DNA of 64,000 nt from Polyangia bacterium (GCA_030429545.1 JAUIFF010000001.1:83599-147598), one strand, 5' to 3'. Positions 8,443 to 64,000 are shown, numbered from the stretch's first letter. Translations and numbers: made by a program. Notes: generated by a model from the letters alone, not told the origin.

Positions 8443-9354
8443 ATGGCGCAGACTATCTTCCTCACCGGGGCCACCGGACTCATCGGCCAACAGCTTTGCC
8501 AGCGATTGCTTGCGGCCGGCCACAGATTGCGCGCGTGGGTCCGTTCGCCGGATGCTGCCCGTGAAAAACTCGGGCCAAAGGTTGAGCTGGTCCCAACTTC
8601 CGGGGGGGAATCGGCGCTCGTGCAGGCACTCGAAGGTGTCGATTGGGTGGTCAACCTCGCCGGTGAGCCGGTGTTTGGGCGACGCTGGACTCCCGAAGTT
8701 AAACGCAGTTTGGTAGCCAGCCGTGTCGATCTTACGCAAAATCTGGTGTCGGCCATGCGCCGGGCAAAAACCCCACCGAGCGTTTTTATCTCGGCCTCGG
8801 CGATCGGGTACTACGGCATTCGCGAAGATGAAGTCGTCGACGAGAAAAGCGAGCCGGGCGACGATTTTTTTGGCGATCTTTGCCAGCAGTGGGAGGCCGC
8901 GGCCAAGCCGGCACGTGAGCTCGGCACACGCCTCGTCAACATGCGTATCGGCATCGTCCTCGCACCAAAGGGTGGGGCCCTGGCCGAAATGGTCGGGCCG
9001 GTCAAGCTCGGAATCGCGGGCCCGCTCGGGAGTGGTCGGCAGTACATGTCGTGGATTCACATCGACGACATCATCGACATGTTTATCCAGGCCCTTACCG
9101 ACAATCGGGTCGAGGGTCCGGTCAACGCGACCGCCCCCAATCCCGTCCGCAATCGCGAAATGATGAAGGCGATCGGCCGGGCCGTGCACCGACCGGTGTT
9201 TATGCCGGTTCCCGGGTTTGCCCTGCGGTTACTCAAGGGAGAGATGGCAACCTATTTGCTCACCGGGCAGCGGGTTGTGCCGGCCGCAATGCAGTCGCTC
9301 GGGTTCCCATTTCGCTACCCGGACCTCGAGTCCGCACTTGCTTCGTTGCTGTGA
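8443..9354 (+). CDS. TIGR01777 (YfcH) family NAD-dependent epimerase/dehydratase with DUF1731 C-terminus
   Basis: Rossmann motif IFLTGATGLIGQQL at the N-terminus. SDR epimerase fold. Start taken at MAQTIFLTGATG. Confidence 0.8.
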   Translation: MAQTIFLTGATGLIGQQLCQRLLAAGHRLRAWVRSPDAAREKLGPKVELVPTSGGESALVQALEGVDWVVNLAGEPVFGRRWTPEVKRSLVASRVDLTQNLVSAMRRAKTPPSVFISASAIGYYGIREDEVVDEKSEPGDDFFGDLCQQWEAAAKPARELGTRLVNMRIGIVLAPKGGALAEMVGPVKLGIAGPLGSGRQYMSWIHIDDIIDMFIQALTDNRVEGPVNATAPNPVRNREMMKAIGRAVHRPVFMPVPGFALRLLKGEMATYLLTGQRVVPAAMQSLGFPFRYPDLESALASLL

Positions 9355-9393
9355 ACCCGCGATTGGCTGCGCAAACGATCTACACTCGCGGCG

Positions 9394-10008
9394 ATGAAGA
9401 TCTACGGATTTCCCAACAGTCGTTCCAACCGTGCCGTGTGGGCCGCCGCCGAAGCGGGCGTCGACTACGAGTATGTCCAAGTCAACCTCACCCAGGGTGG
9501 TGGCCGTACCCCCGAGTACTTGGCGATCAACCCCAATGGCAAGGTGCCGGCGCTGGCCGATGGTGACGACATCATCTGCGAGTCGGGAGCAATCTGTACA
9601 TACATCGGAGATAAGGTGCCCGAAAAAGGTCTGACCCCAGCGGCCGGTACCTATGCGCGGGCGCGTTACAACCAGTGGATGTTTTGGGTGATTGGCGAGC
9701 TCGAGCAACCGCTGTGGACGATCGCCAAGCACTCGTTCATTCTCCCCGAAAAACACCGGGTGCCGGCGATCGTCGAGACCGCCAAGTTCGAGTACAAAAT
9801 CGTCACCAAGGTCCTCGCCAAGGAGCTTGGTGACCAGCAATTCATCCTTGGGGACACCTTCACCATGGCCGACGTGATGATCGGTCACACCCTGTTGTGG
9901 GCGCAGAAGTTCCTGGGTGAATCAGAGCACGCCAACCTCAATGCCTATATTGGGCGTCTTGTCGCGCGACCGGCCTTCCAAAAGATAGCTGCCAAGCCGG
10001 CCAACTAA
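9394..10008 (+). CDS. glutathione S-transferase
   Basis: MKIYGFPNSRSNRAVWAAAEAGVDYEYVQVNL...GKVPAL is a typical GST N-terminal thioredoxin-like domain, followed by a helical C-terminal domain. Confidence 0.85.
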   Translation: MKIYGFPNSRSNRAVWAAAEAGVDYEYVQVNLTQGGGRTPEYLAINPNGKVPALADGDDIICESGAICTYIGDKVPEKGLTPAAGTYARARYNQWMFWVIGELEQPLWTIAKHSFILPEKHRVPAIVETAKFEYKIVTKVLAKELGDQQFILGDTFTMADVMIGHTLLWAQKFLGESEHANLNAYIGRLVARPAFQKIAAKPAN

Positions 10009-49094: not shown

Positions 49095-50933
49095 CTAGAG
49101 TGGACGCAGCTCGTCAACACCATATAGGTCGGCGTAGCGCCGGCGCACGCCAAAACACTCTGATGCCCGGCTGCACGATCTACAGGCAGGCGCCCGGATA
49201 AACTCACCCCCGTCGAAACCCTCGGGGATAGCCGCGAGGTGAAATTGCGACATCACATCGCCGGGGACCAGGCACAGCGGGATTCCACACATCGAATCAA
49301 ACCCCGCGACTTCGACCCCACGTGTACGCGCGATTTTCAGGCCGGCTTGGAGGTCGGGGAGGATCTCCCGGTAGCGCGGAATAAGCTCGGTGCTGTGCGG
49401 GACCATGTCGGTCGATGCTCCGACAAACGACACACAGATCGAAGCCTCGGGCCAGCGTGTGGCGACCATGTCGACATAGGCGGGAAACTCGTGGTGATTG
49501 CGGCGACAGAATACAAAGTTCAGCTGGGTTGTGACCGAAAATTTTGCAAGTACATCGATTCCCGCGAGGGTTTTGACATGGGTACCCGGCGCGGCCGTGA
49601 CCGCGTCGGAGGTTTGTGCGGTGGCCCCGTGTAGCGAAACAAACGCCCGTTGTAGGCCGGCGTCGACGAGTTCGCGGGTGCGGTGCTCGTCGGCCAACAA
49701 AATCGCGTTGGACTGGATTTCAATACTCGCTGCCCCGTGACTGCGGGCGAGGGCGATGTACTCGCGCAGCCGGGGGTTGAGGGTCGGCTCACCGCCCGAC
49801 AAAATCACATGCCCCGAATCCTGTGCAGCTGCAATAATCTCACGGCGGACCCGAGCCTCCGAAGCCGGTGGCAGGTGGGTGGAGACAAAGCAAAAATGGC
49901 ACGCCTGGTTGCAGTGAAAGTTGACCCGGATCGTGGTGCCACGCACCAGTACCCCGTCGTGGCGGGTGTAGAGCTCAGGCGTGACTAGCTCGCGCTCGAT
50001 CTGTTGTTCGACCGAGGCGATGATCGAAAGCCGCCGGCGGATCCGGTCGGCAGCAATCGGACGGGCAGCAAAGCCTGCCGCGGTCAGGTCTGTCGACGGT
50101 CCCGGGCAGCGGTCGAACACCCGGCAGTCTTCGCAGGTTGCTTGGTGCTGGTGCCCCGGGCGGTCTCGGCCCCCCGGTGTCAGCGAAAACAGATGGGCGA
50201 CCCGCCCCGGATGTTCAAAGGCACACGGGGGGATCGGCGGTTCATTTGCAAGTACAAGTGTAAGCCCATGCTGGCGACAGTCGCGGGCGAGCCCTTCGAC
50301 CACCGCACAGGCAGCGGGCAGCGGCAAGCAAGTGTCGGGGTGCGGGCTTTGGCGCGGGACCACGGCGATAACCCGCGACACCGGTAGTGAATGGGCCGCG
50401 ATTTGGGCCGGGATATCGACGACCGTGCAGGTGTTTTTGTGTGCGTCGTTGTGCTGCGTACCAACTGTTTGGCGGGTTATCGGCACGGTCAGGTCGACCT
50501 CGAGGCCCGCGGCGGCGAGGGCCCGGATCGCCGCGACGGTGCGTGTGTGACCTCCGACTTCACCCGTCACGGAGTCGGCCAGTGGGCCCCAGCCGGGCAT
50601 ATGCACCCGCACGCGGGTGAGCCCGGCACGCTTGAGGTTGGCCGCAAGTTCGGGGGTGATCCGGGTGGCATTGGTTTCGAGCTCAATCCCGCCGATCCCT
50701 CGCTTTTTTGCATAAGCAACAATGTCAACGAGATCGCGGCGCAGGGTTGGTTCGCCCCCGGTCACCACAAGTTGTTGACAGGCCTGCTCGGCCGCGTGGT
50801 CGAGCTGTTGCCGAAGCACCTGCGGACCGGCGACTTCTGGACGTTCGCGCTCGCGGCGGACATGACAAAACCGGCACCGATGGTTGCAGGTTTCGTTGGT
50901 GATGAGCTTGAACGTCCGCATGGCCCCAGGCAT
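49095..50933 (-). CDS. fused tandem radical SAM/SPASM enzyme (two complete rSAM modules in one polypeptide)
   Basis: Two CxxxCxxC clusters (CNHRCRFC, CNQACHFC), each followed by GGEPTL and a Cys-rich SPASM-like tail (CEDCRVFDRCPG, CRSCSRASEC). ATG 5 nt after the upstream kinase stop. Confidence 0.8.
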   Translation of the reverse strand: MPGAMRTFKLITNETCNHRCRFCHVRRERERPEVAGPQVLRQQLDHAAEQACQQLVVTGGEPTLRRDLVDIVAYAKKRGIGGIELETNATRITPELAANLKRAGLTRVRVHMPGWGPLADSVTGEVGGHTRTVAAIRALAAAGLEVDLTVPITRQTVGTQHNDAHKNTCTVVDIPAQIAAHSLPVSRVIAVVPRQSPHPDTCLPLPAACAVVEGLARDCRQHGLTLVLANEPPIPPCAFEHPGRVAHLFSLTPGGRDRPGHQHQATCEDCRVFDRCPGPSTDLTAAGFAARPIAADRIRRRLSIIASVEQQIERELVTPELYTRHDGVLVRGTTIRVNFHCNQACHFCFVSTHLPPASEARVRREIIAAAQDSGHVILSGGEPTLNPRLREYIALARSHGAASIEIQSNAILLADEHRTRELVDAGLQRAFVSLHGATAQTSDAVTAAPGTHVKTLAGIDVLAKFSVTTQLNFVFCRRNHHEFPAYVDMVATRWPEASICVSFVGASTDMVPHSTELIPRYREILPDLQAGLKIARTRGVEVAGFDSMCGIPLCLVPGDVMSQFHLAAIPEGFDGGEFIRAPACRSCSRASECFGVRRRYADLYGVDELRPL

Positions 50934-50938
50934 GGGTA

Positions 50939-52978
50939 TCACGACGCCGCGGTACGTGCCGCCGCAGGCTGCGGGTGCAGCCACAACACCAGGCAGTTGA
51001 TGGTGAGGCCACAATGGGCGGCCGACATTAGCCAAAACCGCAACTCGGGCTGGTAGGCGCTTACCACCAGTGCGGCCAAATAGCCCAGGCACGCCGGGAC
51101 CAGGCGTTTTGACACGCTGAGGGCCAACATCGAGGCAACCGAGAACCACAGAAAAAACAACAGTACTTGTAGCTGTGTCGGCGAGAGGTCGAGGGCGGCA
51201 CCAATGATCTGCAGGACAATCTGGGCAAACAACGTGAGCACCAGGGCTCCGGCAAAGCGCCGGTTGATCGCAGTTTGCAGCATGGCCTTGCGGGTGAGGA
51301 GCAACAGCACGCTGACCAGGACAAACGAGGCTACCGGCCACAACAACGCGACGGTGCGGTTGTCGGCCGTTGGCGAGGCGGCGCGAAAAAGCGGGGCCAC
51401 GGTAAAGGCCAGGCCAACGGCAACGATCAGGAGGCTCCGGGTACGACGCCCGGTCCCGGGGTCGAGGTCCCGACGGAGGCTGATGAGCTCGAGTGCCTGG
51501 GAACGCGCCGTCGCCAGTTGCTCGCTACGGGTGCGCAGCTCATCGGTCAAGCCGGTGGGGGGGTCGACAATCGCCTCGATCAGGGTCGACGCCGTCCGCA
51601 GGTCGCCGTGGCGCAGCTCAAACTCGGCGAGCGCGACATCGGCCTGTCGCAGGCCTGCCTGGGCAAGGGTGTTTTGTGGTTCGCGGGCGAGCGCCGTGCG
51701 AAAGCCAAACCGACACTCTCCGTGGGTGCTGTAGACGAGGCCACGGACCTCGTCGGGTTCGCCACCGTCGGCCCGCTCGCATAGTGCTTGTAGCTGCAAT
51801 AAGCTTGCCTGGGCCGTATCGAGGATTTGCTGGCGCCCGCGCGACTGCAGAAAGTTTTGCAGTTCGAGGCGAAGCGCCTGTGCCGAAGCGGGGCGGTTTT
51901 TGGGGTCGTAGTCGAGGGCGCGCCGGCAGATATCGGCAAGTTGTTCGGGGACATTTTCTCCGGCTATTTCGGGGGTCGAGCGCGTGACCTTGGCCAGGAC
52001 TTCCCGCGCACTGCCGCCGGCGTGGGGCGGGTGTCCGGCGAGCAGGCGAAACAGGGTGCTGCCGAGCAGGTAAATGTCGGTGTGCTTGCCAAGCCCGTGT
52101 GGGGCGGCCCCGGGGATCATTTCGGGGGCCATATACATCGGTGTACCTGCAACTTCGTGGGCATCCTTGGCCAGGGGAATGCGGCCATCAAAGTCGTGGT
52201 CGACACTCACGGCAATACCCCAGTCGAGTACGTAGACCTCGCCAAAACCTCCGACCATGACATTTTCGGGCTTGATGTCCCGGTGGATAATCCCGCGGCT
52301 GTGGGCGAAGTGCACGGCGTTGCAAACTTGCATCAAGATCCGCAGGTTCCACTCGAGCGGGTCGCTGGCGCCAAATTGGCGGGCAATCGCCTCGGGGTCG
52401 TCCATCAGCGCGTCCCACGACTGCCCCTCGATGCGCTTGAGCACGATCAGCGGCTCGCCATCGGCATTGAGGGCGATGTCGTGGATCGGCACGATGTTTG
52501 GATGTTCTAAAAGACCGGTAACCCAAGATTCGTGCACGAGCTTGAGCGCATCGACCGATACACCGGTTTCAAGTGCGGTCTCAGCCTGGTTTTGGGGGGT
52601 CGAGCGTTGGCGCAGGCGTTTGACCGCGACCGCCCGGCCGAGCGACGTCTGCACAGCTTCGCGAACCTCGCCCATGCCGCCGCGACCGAGAAGCTTGCCA
52701 AGCACGTACTGGGCGGTTTCGGTGTCGGCCTCGGTCGGCGCGGCCAGGCGAAACAGGCTTGAGGGCCGCAAAGTTGTTGCATCTGCATCAATATCGACAT
52801 CGAGCAGATCGACCCGGGCCAACCTGGCCATGGCGGCCCGGGTTCGTGCGTGGAGGCCTGCGCCTCCCTCCGGGGCAATGGTGCGGTCTAAACTGCCGGC
52901 GAGCGACGCCAAAATCGGCCGCGGGAATTCGGCCTGACCCGTGGCAATCGTCTCGTCGAATTCGGCAGTTTCGGGCAT
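50939..52978 (-). CDS. Ser/Thr protein kinase with C-terminal ~5-TM membrane domain
   Basis: GRGGMGEV...AVK, HRDIKPENV, DWG, APE motifs. C-terminal 160 aa strongly hydrophobic. Confidence 0.85.
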   Translation of the reverse strand: MPETAEFDETIATGQAEFPRPILASLAGSLDRTIAPEGGAGLHARTRAAMARLARVDLLDVDIDADATTLRPSSLFRLAAPTEADTETAQYVLGKLLGRGGMGEVREAVQTSLGRAVAVKRLRQRSTPQNQAETALETGVSVDALKLVHESWVTGLLEHPNIVPIHDIALNADGEPLIVLKRIEGQSWDALMDDPEAIARQFGASDPLEWNLRILMQVCNAVHFAHSRGIIHRDIKPENVMVGGFGEVYVLDWGIAVSVDHDFDGRIPLAKDAHEVAGTPMYMAPEMIPGAAPHGLGKHTDIYLLGSTLFRLLAGHPPHAGGSAREVLAKVTRSTPEIAGENVPEQLADICRRALDYDPKNRPASAQALRLELQNFLQSRGRQQILDTAQASLLQLQALCERADGGEPDEVRGLVYSTHGECRFGFRTALAREPQNTLAQAGLRQADVALAEFELRHGDLRTASTLIEAIVDPPTGLTDELRTRSEQLATARSQALELISLRRDLDPGTGRRTRSLLIVAVGLAFTVAPLFRAASPTADNRTVALLWPVASFVLVSVLLLLTRKAMLQTAINRRFAGALVLTLFAQIVLQIIGAALDLSPTQLQVLLFFLWFSVASMLALSVSKRLVPACLGYLAALVVSAYQPELRFWLMSAAHCGLTINCLVLWLHPQPAAARTAAS

Positions 52979-55395: not shown

Positions 55396-55469
55396 TTCGA
55401 CCACAATAGCCGGTGTGTCAATTTCTATCAATTTGAAATTACTAGTTTAAAAAAGTCGGATTGGAAAAG

Positions 55470-55495
55470 TGTAAAGTAAAGCTTGACACTTTACA
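55470..55495. promoter_or_regulatory. palindromic operator (TGTAAAGT-N10-ACTTTACA) embracing a TTGACA -35 box in a divergent AT-rich promoter region
   Basis: tgtaaagtaaagcTTGACActttaca lies in the only AT-rich stretch for several kb. Confidence 0.5.
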
Positions 55496-55517
55496 TGTGG
55501 TCCGACATGATTCGCCT

Positions 55518-56717
55518 ATGGCATCGCAAACCTGGTTCACCCGACGGCTACAACAGGCCCGACGTGACTTCTCGATGTTGGTCGAGGGCTTTCGCGCGAG
55601 CAAACCCCCGTCGTTTCAAGTGCGAAGCGCCCGACGGTTTTCCCAAAGCCCAAGGCCGGTTGCCCAACCACTTGCGCCGGTGCGCTTGCCCGGTTTGCGA
55701 GAGTTGCGGGTGGTCGAGGTTATCGACGAAACACCCAATGCTCGCAGCTTTGCTCTGCTCGACCCCAACAACGCCCCAATCGAGTTTGTCCCGGGTCAAT
55801 TTTTGACGGTCGAAGTCGAAGTTGAGGGCCAGCGGCTCCGGCGGGCGTACTCACTTTCAAGCCGTGCAGGTGAGGGGCCAGCGACAATCACGGTCAAGCG
55901 TGTTGCCGGAGGCCGGGTGTCGAACTACCTCAACGACAATTTGCGGGTTGGCGACCACCTGCGTGTGTTGGGACCTTCGGGTGATTTCGGGGCCACGCCC
56001 TCGGAGGTTGCCGGGCGCTTGGTGTGTATTGCCGGCGGTAGCGGGATCACGCCGATCATGTCGGTTGTGCGTACATGGATTTGCCAGGGGCAGGGGGAGG
56101 TCCATTTGGTGTACGGCAACCGCAACCCGAGCGAGACGATCTTTTTTGACGAGCTGTCGCGGTTGCAAGCGGACTACAAAAAGTTGCATGTGCACCATGT
56201 TTGGGAGGACGGGGGCGAGGAAGGTAGCCTTGCAGGTCGCCTCGATGTCGCCAACCTCACGGCAGTTTTTACTACCCTGGGTGGTGTTGGTGGTGACGAC
56301 CTGTTTTTGGTCTGTGGGCCAGAGCCGATGATGGCGGCCGCACGGTCGTACCTCCTCGACGCAGGAATCGAGCCCACGCAAATCCGCGAAGAGAAGTTTA
56401 GCCAGCCACACCTGCGCAGCGCCGATGCACAAGCCCATGAACATGCACTGGTGTCGATTCGGGTGGGTGAGACCACCAAGACCGTGACCGTCAAGGGTGG
56501 GCAAACCCTGCTCGAAGCAGGCCTCGACGCCGGGCTGACAATGCCGTTTAGCTGTGCCATGGGCGGTTGTGGTGCCTGTCGGGTGCGCGTGGTCGAGGGC
56601 GTTGTGACGGCCGAAGAACCCAACTGCCTGACACCCGAAGAGCGGGCCGGCGGCTATACGCTTGCCTGTGTCGGGCGCCCCAACGGACCGTGCCAAATCG
56701 CTGTGGAGGGCGCATAA
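55518..56717 (+). CDS. FNR-type oxidoreductase (FAD/NAD(P)-binding) with C-terminal 2Fe-2S ferredoxin domain
   Basis: RAYSLSS FAD motif, GGSGITP NAD motif, Cys cluster C..MGGCGAC.V. Start at MASQTWF, since the upstream ORF part covers the operator. Confidence 0.8.
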   Translation: MASQTWFTRRLQQARRDFSMLVEGFRASKPPSFQVRSARRFSQSPRPVAQPLAPVRLPGLRELRVVEVIDETPNARSFALLDPNNAPIEFVPGQFLTVEVEVEGQRLRRAYSLSSRAGEGPATITVKRVAGGRVSNYLNDNLRVGDHLRVLGPSGDFGATPSEVAGRLVCIAGGSGITPIMSVVRTWICQGQGEVHLVYGNRNPSETIFFDELSRLQADYKKLHVHHVWEDGGEEGSLAGRLDVANLTAVFTTLGGVGGDDLFLVCGPEPMMAAARSYLLDAGIEPTQIREEKFSQPHLRSADAQAHEHALVSIRVGETTKTVTVKGGQTLLEAGLDAGLTMPFSCAMGGCGACRVRVVEGVVTAEEPNCLTPEERAGGYTLACVGRPNGPCQIAVEGA

Positions 56718-57464
56718 ATGGCTGCCCGCAAAGTCGATCGCTCACGGTTCCCCTACCGCATGAAAGACCTGTGCAAAGCGACAGGTCTCGATCGCCAGAC
56801 GATTCACTTTTACATCTCAAAGGGCCTGGTGCCCGAGGGGCATAAGACCGGGCGCAACATGGCCTACTACGGCGACGAGCACCTCGATCGCCTGCGGTTG
56901 GTGCGTCGCCTACAACACGAACGGTTCTTGCCGCTCAAGGCGATTCGCGGGCTGCTCGACGGCGACATTGCCGGGTTTACGAGTGAGCAACAGGGCCTGC
57001 TGCGCGACCTTAAAACCCGGCTCGCGCCGGTGGTGGGCCAGCCGACCGAGGTCGCCGATGCCGTGGCTGTCGACCCCCTACTTGCGCGGCACGAGATTCG
57101 CCTCGACGAGTTGCAAACCCTGGACAAAATGGGGTTGTGCAACTTGATTGAGCGGGATGGACAGTTTTTCTTGCCACCGTCGGACACCTGGGTTGTCGAG
57201 GTTTGGGGCCAGTTGCGGGCGGCTGGACTGACCGAGGAGCTCGGCTTTACGGCGGCCGACTTGCAAGTACATGAAAAAGCCGTGTCCCAACTTTTTGCCC
57301 ATGAGACCGAGCTGATCCTCGGCCGCTTGGGCCACCTCCCCGCCGAGCAGATTGCCAGCGTGATCGCCCGGGCATTGCCGGCGATCAATTCACTCCTCAC
57401 CCATTACCACCTGGCCAAGGCGCGCAACCTGCTGGCCGCGGTTCCCGAAGTTCAAGCAAATTAG
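56718..57464 (+). CDS. MerR family transcriptional regulator
   Basis: N-terminal HTH YRMKDLCKATGLDRQTIHFYISKGLV. ATG immediately after the preceding stop. Confidence 0.75.
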   Translation: MAARKVDRSRFPYRMKDLCKATGLDRQTIHFYISKGLVPEGHKTGRNMAYYGDEHLDRLRLVRRLQHERFLPLKAIRGLLDGDIAGFTSEQQGLLRDLKTRLAPVVGQPTEVADAVAVDPLLARHEIRLDELQTLDKMGLCNLIERDGQFFLPPSDTWVVEVWGQLRAAGLTEELGFTAADLQVHEKAVSQLFAHETELILGRLGHLPAEQIASVIARALPAINSLLTHYHLAKARNLLAAVPEVQAN

Positions 57465-57474
57465 GTGTATCAGC

Positions 57475-58695
<1,221 letters not shown>

Positions 58696-58934
58696 CCTGC
58701 AATCCGGGTGAGGTCTCAACGTCTCGCCGGCCAAGGGGCGTTTTGGGCTCGGGTCCGGCCCCCGGGATAGGTGTGGCCAGACATTGTTTTTACACCGTTG
58801 TATGTGAAACTTTTGCGTCCAAGCGGAGGTCTGGGTAGGTAGTGATTTCACCTGTTTCGCGGCAAAAAAACGTACGCGCGTTCTCGACATTGCCCCGGTA
58901 GAAGGTGCATAATCCTGAGACAAAGGGATTCCAA

Positions 58935-59897
58935 ATGAAACAAACATACCTACCGTTGCTCCTTTCGAGTGTGTTTTTGTTCGCATGTGGCGACAAAGGC
59001 GGTGAAACCGACGCAACTGCGACGGCTGGCCCGACCGGCGACATGACGACCGGCGACGACACCACCACAACCGGAACCCCGACGACCACCGATCCCGGTC
59101 CGGGAACGGACACGGATGGCACAACTGCCGATCCGACCACGACGACGACAACCGATCCAACCACCACGACGTCCGACTCGGACACCGAGTCGTTCCTCGT
59201 CGATCCCGATGTCGACATGGCGACCGAGTGCGATATCTGGTCGTTCGACGATTGCCCCGATGGGCAAAAATGTATGCCGTGGGCGAACGACGGCGGGTCT
59301 TCGTGGAACGCGACCAAGTGTGTCGATATCCAAGACAACCCCGGCGCCGACGGTGATGCCTGTAACACCATTGGTAGTGGTGTCAGCGGTGAAGACACCT
59401 GCGACAATCACCTGTTTTGCTACTACACCAACGACGAGGGCTCGGGTGTGTGCGTGCCGATGTGCGTGGGCAGCCCCGAAAACAAGATGTGCGAGGACCA
59501 GGAGGCCGTGTGTTCGGTTTCCAACGACGGTGTGCTCATCCTGTGCCGCAAGAAGTGTGACCCGCTGTTGCAGGACTGCGATTACCCGGTCGACACCGCG
59601 TGCCTTCCGGCCGCCGGCAGCAACTCGTTTGTCTGTATCGCCGACGCCTCGGGTGATGCCGGCATGCCCGGCGATCCGTGCGAGTTCCTCAACGCCTGTG
59701 ACCCGGGCAACTACTGCGAGGGCGCCGACATCGTGCCGAACTGCCAGGGTGGCATCGGCTGCTGCACCCCGTTTTGCGACGTCAACGACGACAACTGTGA
59801 TCAGCTGGTCCCCGGAACCGTGTGCACGCCGTGGTACGGCGAAGAAAACCCCGAGCCGGGCTACGAGCACGTCGGTGGGTGCACATTGCCGCAGTAA
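58935..59897 (+). CDS. secreted lipoprotein with Thr-rich linker and Cys-rich C-terminal domain
   Basis: Signal with lipobox VFLFACGD. TTTTDPTTTT linker. More than 30 Cys in the C-terminal 200 aa. Confidence 0.6.
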   Translation: MKQTYLPLLLSSVFLFACGDKGGETDATATAGPTGDMTTGDDTTTTGTPTTTDPGPGTDTDGTTADPTTTTTTDPTTTTSDSDTESFLVDPDVDMATECDIWSFDDCPDGQKCMPWANDGGSSWNATKCVDIQDNPGADGDACNTIGSGVSGEDTCDNHLFCYYTNDEGSGVCVPMCVGSPENKMCEDQEAVCSVSNDGVLILCRKKCDPLLQDCDYPVDTACLPAAGSNSFVCIADASGDAGMPGDPCEFLNACDPGNYCEGADIVPNCQGGIGCCTPFCDVNDDNCDQLVPGTVCTPWYGEENPEPGYEHVGGCTLPQ

Positions 59898-59927
59898 CAG
59901 GCATTTGCATGTTCAACAAAATGGTCG

Positions 59928-59958
59928 GCCCCGCGCCGGCCATTTTTGTTTGGCCAGT
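59928..59958. terminator. bidirectional intrinsic terminator between convergent genes
   Basis: aaaATGGtCGGC-cccgc-GCCGgCCATttttg. Confidence 0.6.
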
Positions 59959-60003
59959 GAAACTGCCACATCGGCGAGGAACGGGCTGGGTATAGCCAGA
60001 AGC

Positions 60004-61410
60004 TCACATACTAGCCGGCAAGCGGCGACGAACGGTTGCCATCACCGGCCCGCGCGGGCGAAGTGTGACCCGACCTTGCAGCGGGATGTCTCGCAGCTTG
60101 GCTTCGGGCTCAAACCGCAGGTTTTGGGCCAGGGTCGCCAACACCAAAATGGCTTCCATGCGCGCAAAGTGGTTGCCAATACAAATACGTGCACCGCCGC
60201 CAAACGGGAAGTAGGCAAACCGTGGGAGCTGTTGCTCCAATCCGTCGAACCAGCGACCCGGGTCAAACGTTTCGGGGTGGGGAAACCACCGAGGGTCACG
60301 CTGGGTATGTAGCTGGGCGAAATACAACTGGGCACCCTTGGGGATCGGGACGCCGGCGACTTCGCAATCTCGCAGCGCTTCGCGGCCGATCGCCCAGGCC
60401 GGCGGATACAGCCGCATGGTCTCGAGCACAACGGCCTCGGTGTAGCGCAGTTGGGGAAGGGTCTCCAACGTAGGTGGCTCGCCCGCGAGAACATTGTCGA
60501 GCTCGGCGACCAACTGTGCATATACACCAGGGTGTTCGGCCAGGAGGATAAAGGCAAACGTGAGGGCGAGGGCAGTGGTTTCGTGGCCCGCCGAAAACAT
60601 CGTCACCGCCTCGTCCCGCAGTTGGCCGATTTCCATGGGCTTGCCGTCCTCGTCCCGGGCAGCGAGCAGGCGTGACAGGAGGTCGTCGCCGAGGTTTTGC
60701 CGACGTCGCTCGATCATGGCATCGACGGTCCCGCGCAGACGGTCCCGCGCCTGCATAAACTCGCGTGTCATCGGAATAACCCCGCCGAGCATCGACCGTA
60801 GATAGGCGCGGTTGGAGGCCTGGAGTTGTTCGATCGCCGTCCCGATAGCCTCGGTAATTTCCTCACCGCCGTCACCTAGATCGAGGTCAAATAGGGTTTT
60901 CACGACGATCTCGAGGGTGAGCTGCATCATCACCGCGTGGATGTCGACCCGCGAGCTGTCGCCTAGGTCAGCCTGGATTTTTGATGCAAATGCAACCATT
61001 TGGGAGGCATAGTTGGCGATCTGTCCACGCCGCAGCGGCGGGGCAGCGAGTTTGCGTTGACGTCGCCAAAAGTTGCCTTCGCTCACCAGCAACCCATTGC
61101 CGAGAACCTCCGAGAGCATCCGCGTGGATGCGTCTTTGATAAACCCATCGGCGCGGGTGAGCAGAACTTCCTCGATCGCGGATGGTTGGTAAAATATGTA
61201 ACAGGGGACAGGTCCAAAGTAGAACATCACGACGTCGCCATAGCGGCGACAGTCGGCAAAGAAGTCGAGTTCGCTGCCGACCATACGCGAGATGTTTGAG
61301 AGTGGTCCCCGCGGGCCCGGTGGGTGCTGTCCACTGATTGCTGGGCGCAGTAGGGGAGGGCAGCGCTCGGCGATTCGCTGGCGAACGCGTTGAAGGCGGG
61401 CACGCAACAT
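60004..61410 (-). CDS. cytochrome P450
   Basis: Heme-binding loop FGGGARICIG, EXXR (ETMR), PERF-like region. 468 aa. Confidence 0.9.
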   Translation of the reverse strand: MLRARLQRVRQRIAERCPPLLRPAISGQHPPGPRGPLSNISRMVGSELDFFADCRRYGDVVMFYFGPVPCYIFYQPSAIEEVLLTRADGFIKDASTRMLSEVLGNGLLVSEGNFWRRQRKLAAPPLRRGQIANYASQMVAFASKIQADLGDSSRVDIHAVMMQLTLEIVVKTLFDLDLGDGGEEITEAIGTAIEQLQASNRAYLRSMLGGVIPMTREFMQARDRLRGTVDAMIERRRQNLGDDLLSRLLAARDEDGKPMEIGQLRDEAVTMFSAGHETTALALTFAFILLAEHPGVYAQLVAELDNVLAGEPPTLETLPQLRYTEAVVLETMRLYPPAWAIGREALRDCEVAGVPIPKGAQLYFAQLHTQRDPRWFPHPETFDPGRWFDGLEQQLPRFAYFPFGGGARICIGNHFARMEAILVLATLAQNLRFEPEAKLRDIPLQGRVTLRPRGPVMATVRRRLPASM

Positions 61411-61561
61411 GTTCCGATCTAATCACGATTTGGAGGTGTTGCCCATGCCTGCGACCAGATGTCGGAGCCGGCATGTCTGGGTGCGTGCATAAACACCTAT
61501 TTTACGAAACCTGGGTCGTCCCGCGGCGGGTCGCTCATGTTGTGTGTACAACGAGGTTCGA

Positions 61562-62590
61562 CTAGGCCGGTACCGGCACAAACTCGTCCCAGCCGTTGCG
61601 TCGCAGGTAGTTGCCCCACACGCCCTCGCACACGGGGTTGTAGCGACAGCTGTCGCACTCTGGCCGCTTGCGGCGCTGGTTGTCATCGAGGTCGCCGCGG
61701 CGAATTTGGACGAGCTCACCACTTTGTCCGGCTGCTCGCGACTGCGGGTCGACATCCTGCAAGAGGGCTGCATTGACCTCGTTGGGCGGCTCAAAGTGGA
61801 CGTAGTCCTCGACGTAACCGCGGTTGAAGTCGGGAATGCCGGTGGTCGTACAAAGCGGGATGTCGACCAAAAACGCCATGACCTCGTGTTCGCGCTGGTA
61901 CTGCTCTTGAAAGAAGGTGCGCGCCTGGTCGGCGATTTCGGTGTAGCTCGGGAACAGCTGCTCGAAGTAGGTGTTGGCCCGGCCGTTGGCCTGCATCACG
62001 TTAAACACAACCTGGTCAACACCATGCATACGCAAGAATCGGTAAATCTCACCCATGTAGGGGAGGTTGCGTTTAGTGATCACCGTGCTGGTGTGGAGGG
62101 TGACGCCGTAGGGCTTGAGGCTGGTGACCATGTCGAGCCCAGCCACGGTTTGGGCAAAGCTCTTGGGCGTGCGTGTGAGGCCCTCGTGGAGCTTTTTGGT
62201 GTGCCCGTGAATCGAGATGTAAAACCGATTCATCCCGCGGGCGACAAGCATCTTGGCGTAGCGCTCGTAGCTCAGCGCGCGACCATTGGTCATCATGCTG
62301 ACCATACGAGCGCCCGCAGTCTTGGCCATCCGCACCCAATGCGGTAACCGAGGATTGGTCGTGGGCTCGCCGGAGGTGAAGCAGACTTCTTCGAACGCGT
62401 TGTGCTGGCGCAGAATCCAGGCGACAGACTCGTCGGTCGTGGCGGAGTTGGTGACGTAGCGAGCGTCACGGTCCTCCTCCATACAGAAGATGCAGTTGTT
62501 ATTACAAATCGCGCCCGTCAGGATATGAACCCGAGGGGCGCGGTTTGTGATCCGCTGCTCGATGGACTCCGGTTGCAACGGGTACTCCAC
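61562..62590 (-). CDS. radical SAM/SPASM-domain maturase (HxsB/HxsC-like)
   Basis: CNNNCIFC cluster and C-terminal Cys-rich CDSCRYNPVCEGVW. GTG start 21 nt after the HGS-repeat peptide gene. Confidence 0.8.
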   Translation of the reverse strand: MEYPLQPESIEQRITNRAPRVHILTGAICNNNCIFCMEEDRDARYVTNSATTDESVAWILRQHNAFEEVCFTSGEPTTNPRLPHWVRMAKTAGARMVSMMTNGRALSYERYAKMLVARGMNRFYISIHGHTKKLHEGLTRTPKSFAQTVAGLDMVTSLKPYGVTLHTSTVITKRNLPYMGEIYRFLRMHGVDQVVFNVMQANGRANTYFEQLFPSYTEIADQARTFFQEQYQREHEVMAFLVDIPLCTTTGIPDFNRGYVEDYVHFEPPNEVNAALLQDVDPQSRAAGQSGELVQIRRGDLDDNQRRKRPECDSCRYNPVCEGVWGNYLRRNGWDEFVPVPA

Positions 62591-62611
62591 AGGGGGATTT
62601 TAACCCACCTG

Positions 62612-62968
62612 CTACCAGGATCCGTGAGAACCGTGGGAGCCGTGGGAGCCGTGGGAGCCGTGGGAGCCGTGGGAACCGTGGGAGCCGTGAGACCCGTGGG
62701 AGCCGTGAGACCCGTGGGAGCCGTGAGACCCGTGAGACCCGTGAGATCCGTGAGACCCGTGAGACCCGTGAGAACCATGCGAACAGTGGCCCGAGTCCCC
62801 AGGCCCTACCATGACCGTGGTCAGTGACATACTCGCCGGCCCAGCATCGGCGTAGAGTCGGGCCTTGTCGGATATTTCCCGCTGGCCCTTGCTCAGCACT
62901 GGTCCCTTGCGGGTGAACGTCGGGAGAGCGTTCAGATCGTCGGTTGCCTTTCCATCACTCTTCGCCAT
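62612..62968 (-). CDS. His-Gly-Ser repeat precursor peptide (HxsA-like; ~60-aa leader + (HGS)x18)
   Basis: MAKSDGKATDDLNALPTFTRKGPVLSKGQREISDKARLYADAGPASMSLTTVMVGPGDSGHCSHGSHGSH...GSW. Encoded by 9-bp tandem repeats (GGCTCCCAC on the coding strand). GAGGA RBS 7 nt upstream. Confidence 0.7.
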   Translation of the reverse strand: MAKSDGKATDDLNALPTFTRKGPVLSKGQREISDKARLYADAGPASMSLTTVMVGPGDSGHCSHGSHGSHGSHGSHGSHGSHGSHGSHGSHGSHGSHGSHGSHGSHGSHGSHGSHGSW

Positions 62969-63386
62969 AACTCAGTCCTCTGTCCGCGCCGTAATCGCCA
63001 CGCATCCTACCACGGAGCTGTCCAGTGTGAAATCCCGGACAAACCGGCGTTCGTCACGGAACAAGGGTCGTTTTCGACAGTTGCGGCGGGACGACTCTCC
63101 TCAGATAACGCCTGAGATGGGTCTGAGAGCATATTTTCAGGAGAAAGGGCCACTTTCGGTCACTACCCGATGACTGCTCGCCGGAAGATCTAGAAAGGAA
63201 ATTCGCCCAATTGGAGATCCGTAAGGATGCGCCGTTGCCCGCGCCTAGGGGGCACGGACGTGTGTTGGCGAGCGAGTGCACCCGGTCGTCCCCTCCGCTC
63301 GCGGATGCTCACCAACCTAATCAACCCGTTGCGGCCGAGACCAACAACGGGTTGCATGTACAAACGATTGCGCTGCTCTGCGTGAC

Positions 63387-64000
63387 CTACGAGGCTGCGT
63401 TGGCGGGCTCGCTGTCCTGGACGAAGTGTTCGCGCGCACGAATCGTCGTCCATTTCTCGAAAATATCGAGTAGCTCCTGATCGGCGGTGGCAATTTTTTC
63501 AAACAGGAAATCCTGGATTCCCTTGTGCACCGCACACACGTTGTTTTCTCGCATGCGGCCAAAAATGCTGCCCTGGGCCTTGTGATTGGTGGCCGAAATG
63601 GTGCCGCAGTAGGGGTTGTAGGCACAGTTCACGCAGTCGGGTTGGGAGTCGAGGTTCGAGGCCAACACCATCGCCCGCACGGTTTCGTGGCCGACGAGCT
63701 CGCGGTAGGTGTGGGTATCGACATGTCCCAAGTGAAAGGTGTCCTCACCCATGGCGTACAGCATGCGCCCCTCGTCGCAGGTAAAAACCTTGCCGTCGAA
63801 GCTGTAGGCGAGCTGGCCAACACCGGCACCGGCCGGGCTGCGCAGGTCGAGGAAGTTGGGGTCCTGACCCTGCAAAATTTTGGTGAGGAAGATGCCGGCA
63901 AACCGCTCTAAGACCTCGACACCCTGGCGGTTGAGCTCGATCATGTAGTTGACCGCGTTGCGGTAGAACTCGAGGTATGCGCTGCGTGGGTATTCGATTT
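63387..64000 (-). CDS. second radical SAM/SPASM-domain protein (3' part; gene continues beyond the window end)
   Basis: SPASM-like motifs CVNCAYNPYCG and CAVHKG. Reading frame stays open upstream of the listed Met to the window edge. Confidence 0.65.
   Translation of the reverse strand, partial: IEYPRSAYLEFYRNAVNYMIELNRQGVEVLERFAGIFLTKILQGQDPNFLDLRSPAGAGVGQLAYSFDGKVFTCDEGRMLYAMGEDTFHLGHVDTHTYRELVGHETVRAMVLASNLDSQPDCVNCAYNPYCGTISATNHKAQGSIFGRMRENNVCAVHKGIQDFLFEKIATADQELLDIFEKWTTIRAREHFVQDSEPANAAS

Follow-up and report, generated by a model that had tools for sequence, protein, structure and literature searches.

The DNA analyzed here, a stretch of 64,000 nucleotides from a Polyangia bacterium (GCA_030429545.1 JAUIFF010000001.1:83599-147598; hereafter, the window), carries at one end a set of co-oriented genes on the minus strand: the 3′ part of a radical S-adenosylmethionine (SAM)/SPASM maturase gene, hxsB (63387–64000, continuing past the window end), a precursor peptide gene, hxsA4 (62612–62968), a second radical SAM gene, hxsC4 (61562–62590), and a cytochrome P450 gene (60004–61410). 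The locus belongs to the catalogued HxsA4/HxsC4 branch of the His-Xaa-Ser (HXS) systems, and curated models already exist for its annotation. The first in silico definition of HXS systems is reportedly that of Haft and Basu in 2011. We consider it likely that the locus is a type-4 HXS cassette for peptide maturation in a Nannocystaceae-like myxobacterium, ordered (hxsD)-hxsB-hxsA4-hxsC4, which directs radical modification of the peptide repeats. A preliminary description of the same stretch had proposed a His-Xaa-Ser system with a repeat peptide between two radical SAM enzymes; our analysis agrees, and finds HxsD and a full-length HxsB upstream in the closest relative locus.

The precursor peptide gene hxsA4

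Protein families were assigned at the NCBIfam cut-offs (55 bits for HxsA4, NF038313; 500 for HxsC4, NF038332; 370 for HxsB, TIGR03978; 50 for HxsD, TIGR03976; 267.9 for HxsC, TIGR03977) and Pfam domains at E ≤ 0.01. hxsA4 is an open reading frame (ORF) of 118 amino acids with the sequence MAKSDGKATDDLNALPTFTRKGPVLSKGQREISDKARLYADAGPASMSLTTVMVGPGDSG-HCS-(HGS)18-W. A 60-residue leader comes first (res. 1–60, 62788–62968); it is hydrophilic, carries a family-wide motif, and contains no signal peptide or other hydrophobic signal sequence. The core (62612–62787) spans residues 61–117 with 19 H-x-S units, one HCS followed by 18 perfect HGS, and ends with Trp118 and the stop codon. The peptide scores 91.1 bits against the HxsA4 model, above the cut-off, and gives no match to the canonical HxsA model TIGR03979 at E ≤ 0.01. 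A Shine-Dalgarno-like AGAGGA lies 7 nt ahead of the ATG, and an in-frame TGA is found 6 nt before it, so that the ORF is not part of a larger protein, a possibility that the preliminary description had raised. The other features reported there for the peptide, namely its length, a leader of about 60 residues, 18 perfect HGS units, a final Trp and a 9-bp tandem repeat in the DNA, were recovered at the same coordinates. A conserved leader followed by a core, adjoining two radical SAM genes, is the arrangement by which the precursor of a peptide that is made ribosomally and modified post-translationally (RiPP) is recognized, and hxsA4 has it. The sole Pfam match of the peptide, to Collagen on the HGS repeat, was set aside as spurious.

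At the DNA level, Tandem Repeats Finder detects a 9-bp period with 16.9 copies at 62622–62773. The HGS units vary at synonymous third positions only (His, 17 CAC and one CAT; Gly, seven GGC, six GGG, three GGT and two GGA; Ser, nine TCT and nine TCC). The closest relative locus, L003, from an uncultured Nannocystaceae bacterium represented by a metagenome-assembled genome (MAG), encodes an HxsC4 91% identical to that of the window, and its HGS repeat is identical as protein although the Ser codons there are different, TCG and TCA. The repeat is therefore kept at the protein level, which points to selection acting on the HGS protein sequence and not to a neutral microsatellite.

The flanking enzymes HxsC4 and HxsB

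The start codon of hxsC4 lies 21 nt after the hxsA4 stop, in the same frame, and the gene has the position, spacing and CNNNCIFC motif given in the preliminary description. HxsC4 scores 620.1 bits against its NCBIfam model, above the cut-off; the next-best family is canonical HxsC, at 84.8 bits, below the cut-off for that family. All eight cysteines are invariant in 119 homologues: C29, C33 and C36 of the radical SAM motif, C70, C247, and a C-terminal CxxCx5C formed by C312-x2-C315-x5-C321. The invariant cysteines beyond the radical SAM motif suggest an auxiliary cluster, as reported for HxsC of Escherichia coli. Pfam finds the Radical_SAM domain alone, and SPASM (PF13186/TIGR04085) appears neither in Pfam at E ≤ 0.01 nor among the best 25 of 41 NCBIfam families; the radical SAM/SPASM label first given to this enzyme is not supported and fits HxsB better. 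In an AlphaFold2 model of HxsC4 (predicted local distance difference test, pLDDT, 82), a Foldseek search against the Protein Data Bank (PDB) retrieved only generic radical SAM cores (BlsE, GDGT-MAS, DesII, viperin, and MoaA) at a TM-score of ~0.5, and the predicted structure offers no functional clue beyond the radical SAM superfamily.

On the other side of the peptide gene, hxsB ends 418 nt upstream of hxsA4, in keeping with the ~420 nt first estimated. The 203-residue fragment inside the window aligns to positions 284–466 of the HxsB model and scores 229 bits on those 183 residues, the cut-off of 370 applying to the full length. Against the SPASM model TIGR04085 it scores 26.3 bits (cut-off 27). 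The profile search suggested in the preliminary description thus places HxsA4 and HxsC4 above their cut-offs and the truncated gene on the C-terminal 183 positions of HxsB.

An identical HxsC4 protein occurs only in two short Logan contigs, both of which start inside the HGS repeat, and L003 was therefore taken as a proxy for the upstream part of the locus. The HxsB fragment is 96% identical to its L003 orthologue, which at full length scores 566.6 bits. Directly upstream of it lies hxsD (71.2 bits); downstream of hxsB follow a gap of ~250 nt, hxsA4 and hxsC4, and parA/parB and lon are located farther upstream. From this arrangement, what the window contains is most probably a D-B-A4-C4 cassette's downstream half.

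In L003, hxsA4 and hxsC4 form one 473-residue in-frame ORF (L003:9587–11008, plus strand) that matches both models. The TAG and TAA stops of the window (62590–62614, same frame, 21-nt spacer) are replaced there by TCG and CAA. Either a true fusion of precursor and enzyme or an error in the MAG may account for this ORF.

The type-4 family across Myxococcota and beyond

Relatives of HxsC4 were sought in species-representative genomes, 224 of which encode one, and 80 loci were fetched for comparison, all from Myxococcota or from MAGs labeled 'Deltaproteobacteria'. Family-wide counts refer to these 80 loci. A gene for an H-x-S-repeat peptide is present in 64 of the 80, HxsB in 51 and HxsD in 46, and most of these loci share the order D-B-A4-C4 on one strand. 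Nearly all the peptides are pure (HGS)n with 7–21 units (median 13), and their arrays commonly open with HCS, HAS or HGS. The C-terminal HGSHGSW is almost invariant, with a single HGRW among the recovered termini. The leader motif LPxFxR..L..QRxIS..A...AD is kept in 58 aligned peptides, as in the window, again with no signal peptide, and about 60 genomes keep the terminal Trp along with the leader and the context of the start codon. A pure (HGS)n array, regarded as unusual in the preliminary description, is hence the norm of the family, and the window locus stands out only by a copy number at its high end (19 H-x-S units) and by a P450 neighbor special to its lineage. Its core genes are no different from other members of the NCBIfam type-4 families NF038313 and NF038332 ('rSAM_rare_HxsC4'), and NCBI already uses the names HxsC4 or HxsA4 for many database relatives; neither name was found in the literature searched.

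Many relatives add further enzymes. A fifth conserved gene, co-oriented and directly upstream of hxsD, encodes a fusion of a radical SAM domain to a class I methyltransferase (39/80 loci). Subsets of loci carry a radical SAM-AhpC/peroxiredoxin fusion (12/80), an α-ketoglutarate (aKG)-HExxH peptide β-hydroxylase (TIGR04267; 17/80), a 343-residue radical SAM paralogue, and a 199-residue protein with a Tat (twin-arginine translocation) signal. Examples of these accessory genes lie at L009:4669–6756 (plus strand), L071:3476–5617 (plus), L004:1628–3157 (minus), and L009:2747–3778 (minus). The best model for the extra radical SAM domains is HxsC4, always below threshold. None of these accessory genes was found within 10 kb in L003, and the window contains no orthologue of the methyltransferase or AhpC fusions, the HExxH hydroxylase, the 343-residue radical SAM protein or the Tat-signal protein; the nearest it offers is a distantly related tandem radical SAM protein at 49095–50930. 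Two further candidates, clusters 10 and 14 of long minus-strand ORFs upstream of hxsD, were rejected: codon-position GC identifies them as shadow ORFs opposite hxsD and the radical SAM-methyltransferase fusion, both encoded on the plus strand.

Beyond these loci, HxsA4-like peptides occur in databases of metagenomes and MAGs (P0121, P0138, P0148, P0155, P0170, P0196, and P0225); the three with a source name, P0138, P0148 and P0225, are from Omnitrophota. They share a related N-terminal motif, LPxIKKDIKxFLxSEEGK, and a hydrophobic signal- or transmembrane-like stretch; their repeats are of the mixed form H[GASN]S, and their termini are GQW, GSW or RGGWC. Trp near the C-terminus seems to be a general feature of the HxsA4 peptide class.

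Comparison with characterized systems

An HxsD-B-C-A operon of E. coli blocks phage DNA entry and constitutes an antiphage system (Li et al., Nat Commun 2026, PMC13128918), and the statement in the preliminary description that HXS systems are, to its author's knowledge, biochemically uncharacterized is outdated. E. coli HxsA has a signal peptide and a peptidoglycan-binding domain, both essential; it is N-terminally processed and acquires +8 Da on an H-x-S-containing SHRSS motif (PMC13128918). The system depends on each of its four genes and on the Fe-S Cys motifs, HxsB, HxsC and HxsD are all needed for HxsA processing, and HxsC binds HxsD (PMC13128918). In vitro reconstitution failed, and the +8 Da shift on one motif is all that is known of the chemistry of HxsB and HxsC even in this system (PMC13128918).

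The type-4 cassette resembles the E. coli system in its HxsB and HxsD, which match at the orthologue level, in having HxsC as the family nearest to HxsC4, in a substrate with tandem H-x-S repeats, and in two enzymes that each combine a radical SAM cluster with a second Cys motif. It differs in gene order, which is D-B-C-A in 99.6% of canonical HXS systems (PMC13128918), whereas the window has hxsB-hxsA4-hxsC4 and its relatives D-B-A4-C4. The substrate is also built differently: HxsA4 has 118 residues, 19 contiguous, near-pure HGS units and a terminal Trp, and lacks both the signal peptide and the peptidoglycan-binding domain. Type-4 relatives further add the radical SAM-methyltransferase fusion and other enzymes, and the branch occurs in Myxococcota and Omnitrophota rather than in Gammaproteobacteria. 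As read from these genomes, the HXS enzyme set of Myxococcota, in many cases joined by additional radical SAM paralogues, appears to serve a substrate of another build, so that HXS may have a wider biological role than defense against phages.

A chemical precedent for a bond between His-C2 and the β-carbon of residue 3, made repeatedly along a precursor, may be seen in His-X-X cyclophanes. The SPASM radical SAM enzymes HaaB, HtkB and YhhB form His-C2 to residue-3 C-β cross-links on His-X-X (PMC11499958). Like these triceptide synthases, the type-4 cassette has a SPASM radical SAM enzyme and a substrate of aromatic-X-X triplets, which H-G-S fits; unlike them, E. coli HXS gives +8 Da instead of −2 Da, and HXS needs a second radical SAM enzyme and HxsD. 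RiPPs with a repeated core offer a second parallel. In the TVGG-repeat poly-cyclopropylglycine peptide (PMC9062424), as in the GrrM/OscB group (TIGR04261), a leader precedes many identical short repeats modified by a radical SAM enzyme, but the enzyme families, the repeat and the chemistry are different, and HxsC4 scores only 36.2 bits on GrrM/OscB (cut-off 310).

A proposed pathway and its alternatives

We propose that hxsA4 would be transcribed from a promoter of its own, yielding excess precursor. The HxsA4 precursor would be cytoplasmic, and its leader motif would dock the peptide to HxsB, to a pair of HxsC4 and HxsD, or to both, HxsC4 probably being in complex with HxsD by analogy with HxsC-HxsD of E. 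coli. We infer a leader-guided, iterative reaction, in which HxsB and HxsC4 would carry out radical chemistry on the His and Ser of each repeat. Carbon-carbon cross-linking or ring formation inside each H-x-S triplet would be the likeliest reaction, and the mature product would be a heavily modified, cross-linked, His-rich peptide. The type-4 precursor, short, with 18 identical minimal HGS units and with neither a signal peptide nor a peptidoglycan domain, would also give a practical handle on HXS chemistry, because mass spectrometry would show a modification made on every repeat in amplified form, and nuclear magnetic resonance (NMR) would read it easily.

Several observations weigh against this proposal. 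What is known of type-4 systems comes from their genes. Neither hxsD nor the N-terminal two thirds of hxsB lies in the window, which ends within the latter gene. HxsC4 falls far below the HxsC cut-off (84.8 versus 267.9 bits) and may catalyze a chemistry other than that of E. coli HxsC, while the L003 HxsB belongs to no characterized cyclophane-synthase family (45.5 versus a cut-off of 445 bits for YhhB, and 43.7 versus 425 for AmcB). No leader protease or exporter was found among the annotated conserved neighbors when neighbor families were clustered over the 80 loci. Furthermore, 16 of the 80 loci have no peptide gene within 10 kb. Fifteen of these encode an intact HxsC4 orthologue, so HxsC4 may have another substrate or act in trans; in the remaining one, L032, the assembly is interrupted by a gap of 100 N just upstream of hxsC4.

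The HxsC4 proteins of the peptide-less loci (L018, L019, L029, L031, L047, L049, L051–L053, L058, L069, L073, L077, L078, and L081, together with L032) are 62–72% identical to that of the window. In L018, L019 and L029, hxsB abuts hxsC4 with no space for a peptide gene, and several of the others have a long radical SAM paralogue (~780 aa) close by.

The most substantial alternative, itself compatible with a peptide-maturation cassette, is antiphage defense as in E. coli, in which mature HxsA4 would sit at the envelope and block phage DNA entry; we regard it as possible but doubtful. HxsB and HxsD are common to both systems, HxsC is the closest family to HxsC4, and HXS repeats are the functional array of the E. 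coli system (PMC13128918). The signal- or transmembrane-like stretch in the HxsA4-like peptides of Omnitrophota and other MAGs suggests export. The myxobacterial HxsA4, however, has neither the signal peptide nor the peptidoglycan-binding domain that are essential in E. coli HxsA, and its repeats contain no Lys or Arg, which would weaken the electrostatic DNA binding proposed there. HxsC4 identity drops with taxonomic distance (63–91%, from Kofleriaceae to Nannocystaceae), a pattern that looks vertical and not like a mobile island, and the conserved neighbors, the radical SAM-methyltransferase fusion and the HExxH β-hydroxylase, are of a biosynthetic type. For these reasons, carrying the E. 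coli role over to type-4 systems would be reasonable but weakly supported. PADLOC, whose 2023 library (PADLOC-DB 2.0) predates the HXS report and has no HXS model, returned only generic similarity at the level of viperin/pVip radical SAM proteins. Alternatively, type-4 HXS systems could be biosynthetic and unrelated to defense, a reading we hold to be rather unlikely: each HGS would become a cross-linked or heterocyclic unit of a rigid oligomer, or be released as a small unit, the extra enzymes of relatives would extend the pathway, the P450 would act on the C-terminal His/Trp, and the product would define a new RiPP scaffold class. Were it true, HxsA4 would be a favorable substrate for solving the +8 Da chemistry of HXS. 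It is very improbable that HxsA4 is instead a His-rich peptide for binding or storing Ni, Zn or Cu with unrelated radical SAM genes beside it. His-rich tracts commonly bind metals, and there are 19 His within 57 residues; against this, the peptide gene is repeatedly linked to hxsB, hxsD and hxsC4 in dozens of genomes, its stop lies 21 nt from hxsC4 in the same frame, its leader motif is conserved in the manner typical of enzyme-recognized precursors, and E. coli genetics shows the enzymes acting on HxsA (PMC13128918). The modified product might nevertheless bind metals. Finally, the ORF could be spurious and the repeat either an artefact of assembly or a 9-bp microsatellite that codes for nothing, since short-read assemblies break in it, as both Logan contigs do. 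This reading is effectively refuted by differences among units that are synonymous only, by the other codons used for HGS in relatives, by the HxsA4 score above cut-off, and by the start context, leader and terminal Trp shared by about 60 genomes.

The preliminary description also took the P450 (60004–61410, minus strand) to suggest additional oxidative tailoring. On this reading it would be an integral enzyme of the pathway, which might for example cross-link or hydroxylate the C-terminal His/Trp of the modified peptide. The gene is indeed immediately downstream of hxsC4 and co-oriented with it, at a gap of 151 nt, and encodes an intact P450 (PF00067, 270 bits) with the heme-binding FxxGxRxCxG and the ExxR motifs. 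Co-transcription with hxsC4 is possible: a terminator-like site is found just past the P450 stop and none between it and hxsC4, but the scan performs no better than chance (four sites found versus 3.6 expected). The P450 reaches no NCBIfam cut-off; its best matches are terpenoid P450 models, far below their thresholds, and its similarity to the RiPP P450 ApyO (NF050147) is weak (159 versus 525 bits). Distribution speaks against a pathway role. Among the 68 informative loci, those with at least 3 kb of sequence beyond hxsC4, the position is occupied by a P450 in two, L003 (78% identity) and L005 (49%), and not in the other 66, including L004 and L025 (HxsC4 83–85% identical), where a gene for a Cys-rich lipoprotein directly follows hxsC4. 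A protein search returned three close relatives (100, 78, and 74% identity), beyond which thousands of homologues at ≤50% identity spread over many phyla. Of the distant homologues sampled, two have surroundings unrelated to the cassette, one in a Persicimonas locus and the other in a copper-ATPase/CsoR neighborhood; the contig of a third starts at the P450 gene, so its upstream side is uninformative. Integral tailoring by the P450 is therefore improbable. We rejected it as a conserved cassette partner; it is probably a lineage-specific neighbor and not a core component, and it should not be counted in the system.

Signals around hxsA4 and neighboring genes

A consensus scan recovered the σ70-like promoter candidate noted earlier for hxsA4 (63004–63031, minus strand), in which TTCACA and TG-n-TAGGAT are separated by 16 nt. 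The match is not significant by itself, as the scan is at chance level (two sites found versus 1.1 expected), but its extended −10 block, CGTGnTAnnnT, ~35 nt before the ATG, is kept in L003, L004, L005 and L025, whose hxsB-hxsA4 intergenic regions are dissimilar apart from this block. The gap of the window aligns with that of L003 only over ~110 nt adjoining the ATG. The hairpin described after hxsB is also present, with arms of 10 nt and not 9 (63322–63331 and 63345–63354, minus strand; 13-nt loop). This inverted repeat (63322–63354) begins 32 nt past the hxsB stop, its fold is unexceptional (z-score −1.46), no T-run follows it, and the intergenic alignment shows no counterpart in L003. A Rfam scan of 59800–64000 at E ≤ 1 gave no match, and hence no known riboswitch or leader RNA in the 418-nt gap. 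Two small ORFs in this gap (63007–63153 and 63054–63281), considered as a second peptide gene, were rejected as not conserved.

On the far side of the P450 and convergent with it, 58905–59897 (plus strand) encodes a Thr-rich, Cys-rich lipoprotein with the lipobox LFAC and no family match. Homologues (34–36% identity) lie immediately upstream of hxsA4 and divergent from it in five Nannocystis genomes (L020, L023, L026, L028, and L030, ~8630–9570, minus strand). For those five loci, tblastn with HxsB, its C-terminal fragment and HxsD gave no match in the ~20 kb fetched. As judged from these loci, the Nannocystis layout is apparently a second, different arrangement beside the cassette.

Farther from the cassette, three packed, co-oriented genes (55461–58695, plus strand) encode a PaaE-like ferredoxin reductase (FNR and 2Fe-2S domains), a MerR-family regulator, and a di-iron protein weakly similar to AurF and R2-like oxidases. 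The trio is syntenic with the HXS locus in L004 and L025, where all three genes are present, and in L003, where the contig ends in the di-iron gene. It is possible that these genes form a redox partner set for the P450, or else an independent oxygenase unit.

Elsewhere in the window, 49095–50930 (minus strand) encodes a protein of ~611 residues in which two radical SAM domains stand in tandem, one with CNHRCRFC and one with CNQACHFC, and which carries CRSCSRASEC at its C-terminus. Its best-scoring NCBIfam models include HxsC4 (127 bits) and HxsC (106 bits), with similar values for MoaA and heme b synthase, all below cut-off. Immediately upstream of it is a gene for a Ser/Thr protein kinase (50939–52978, minus strand).

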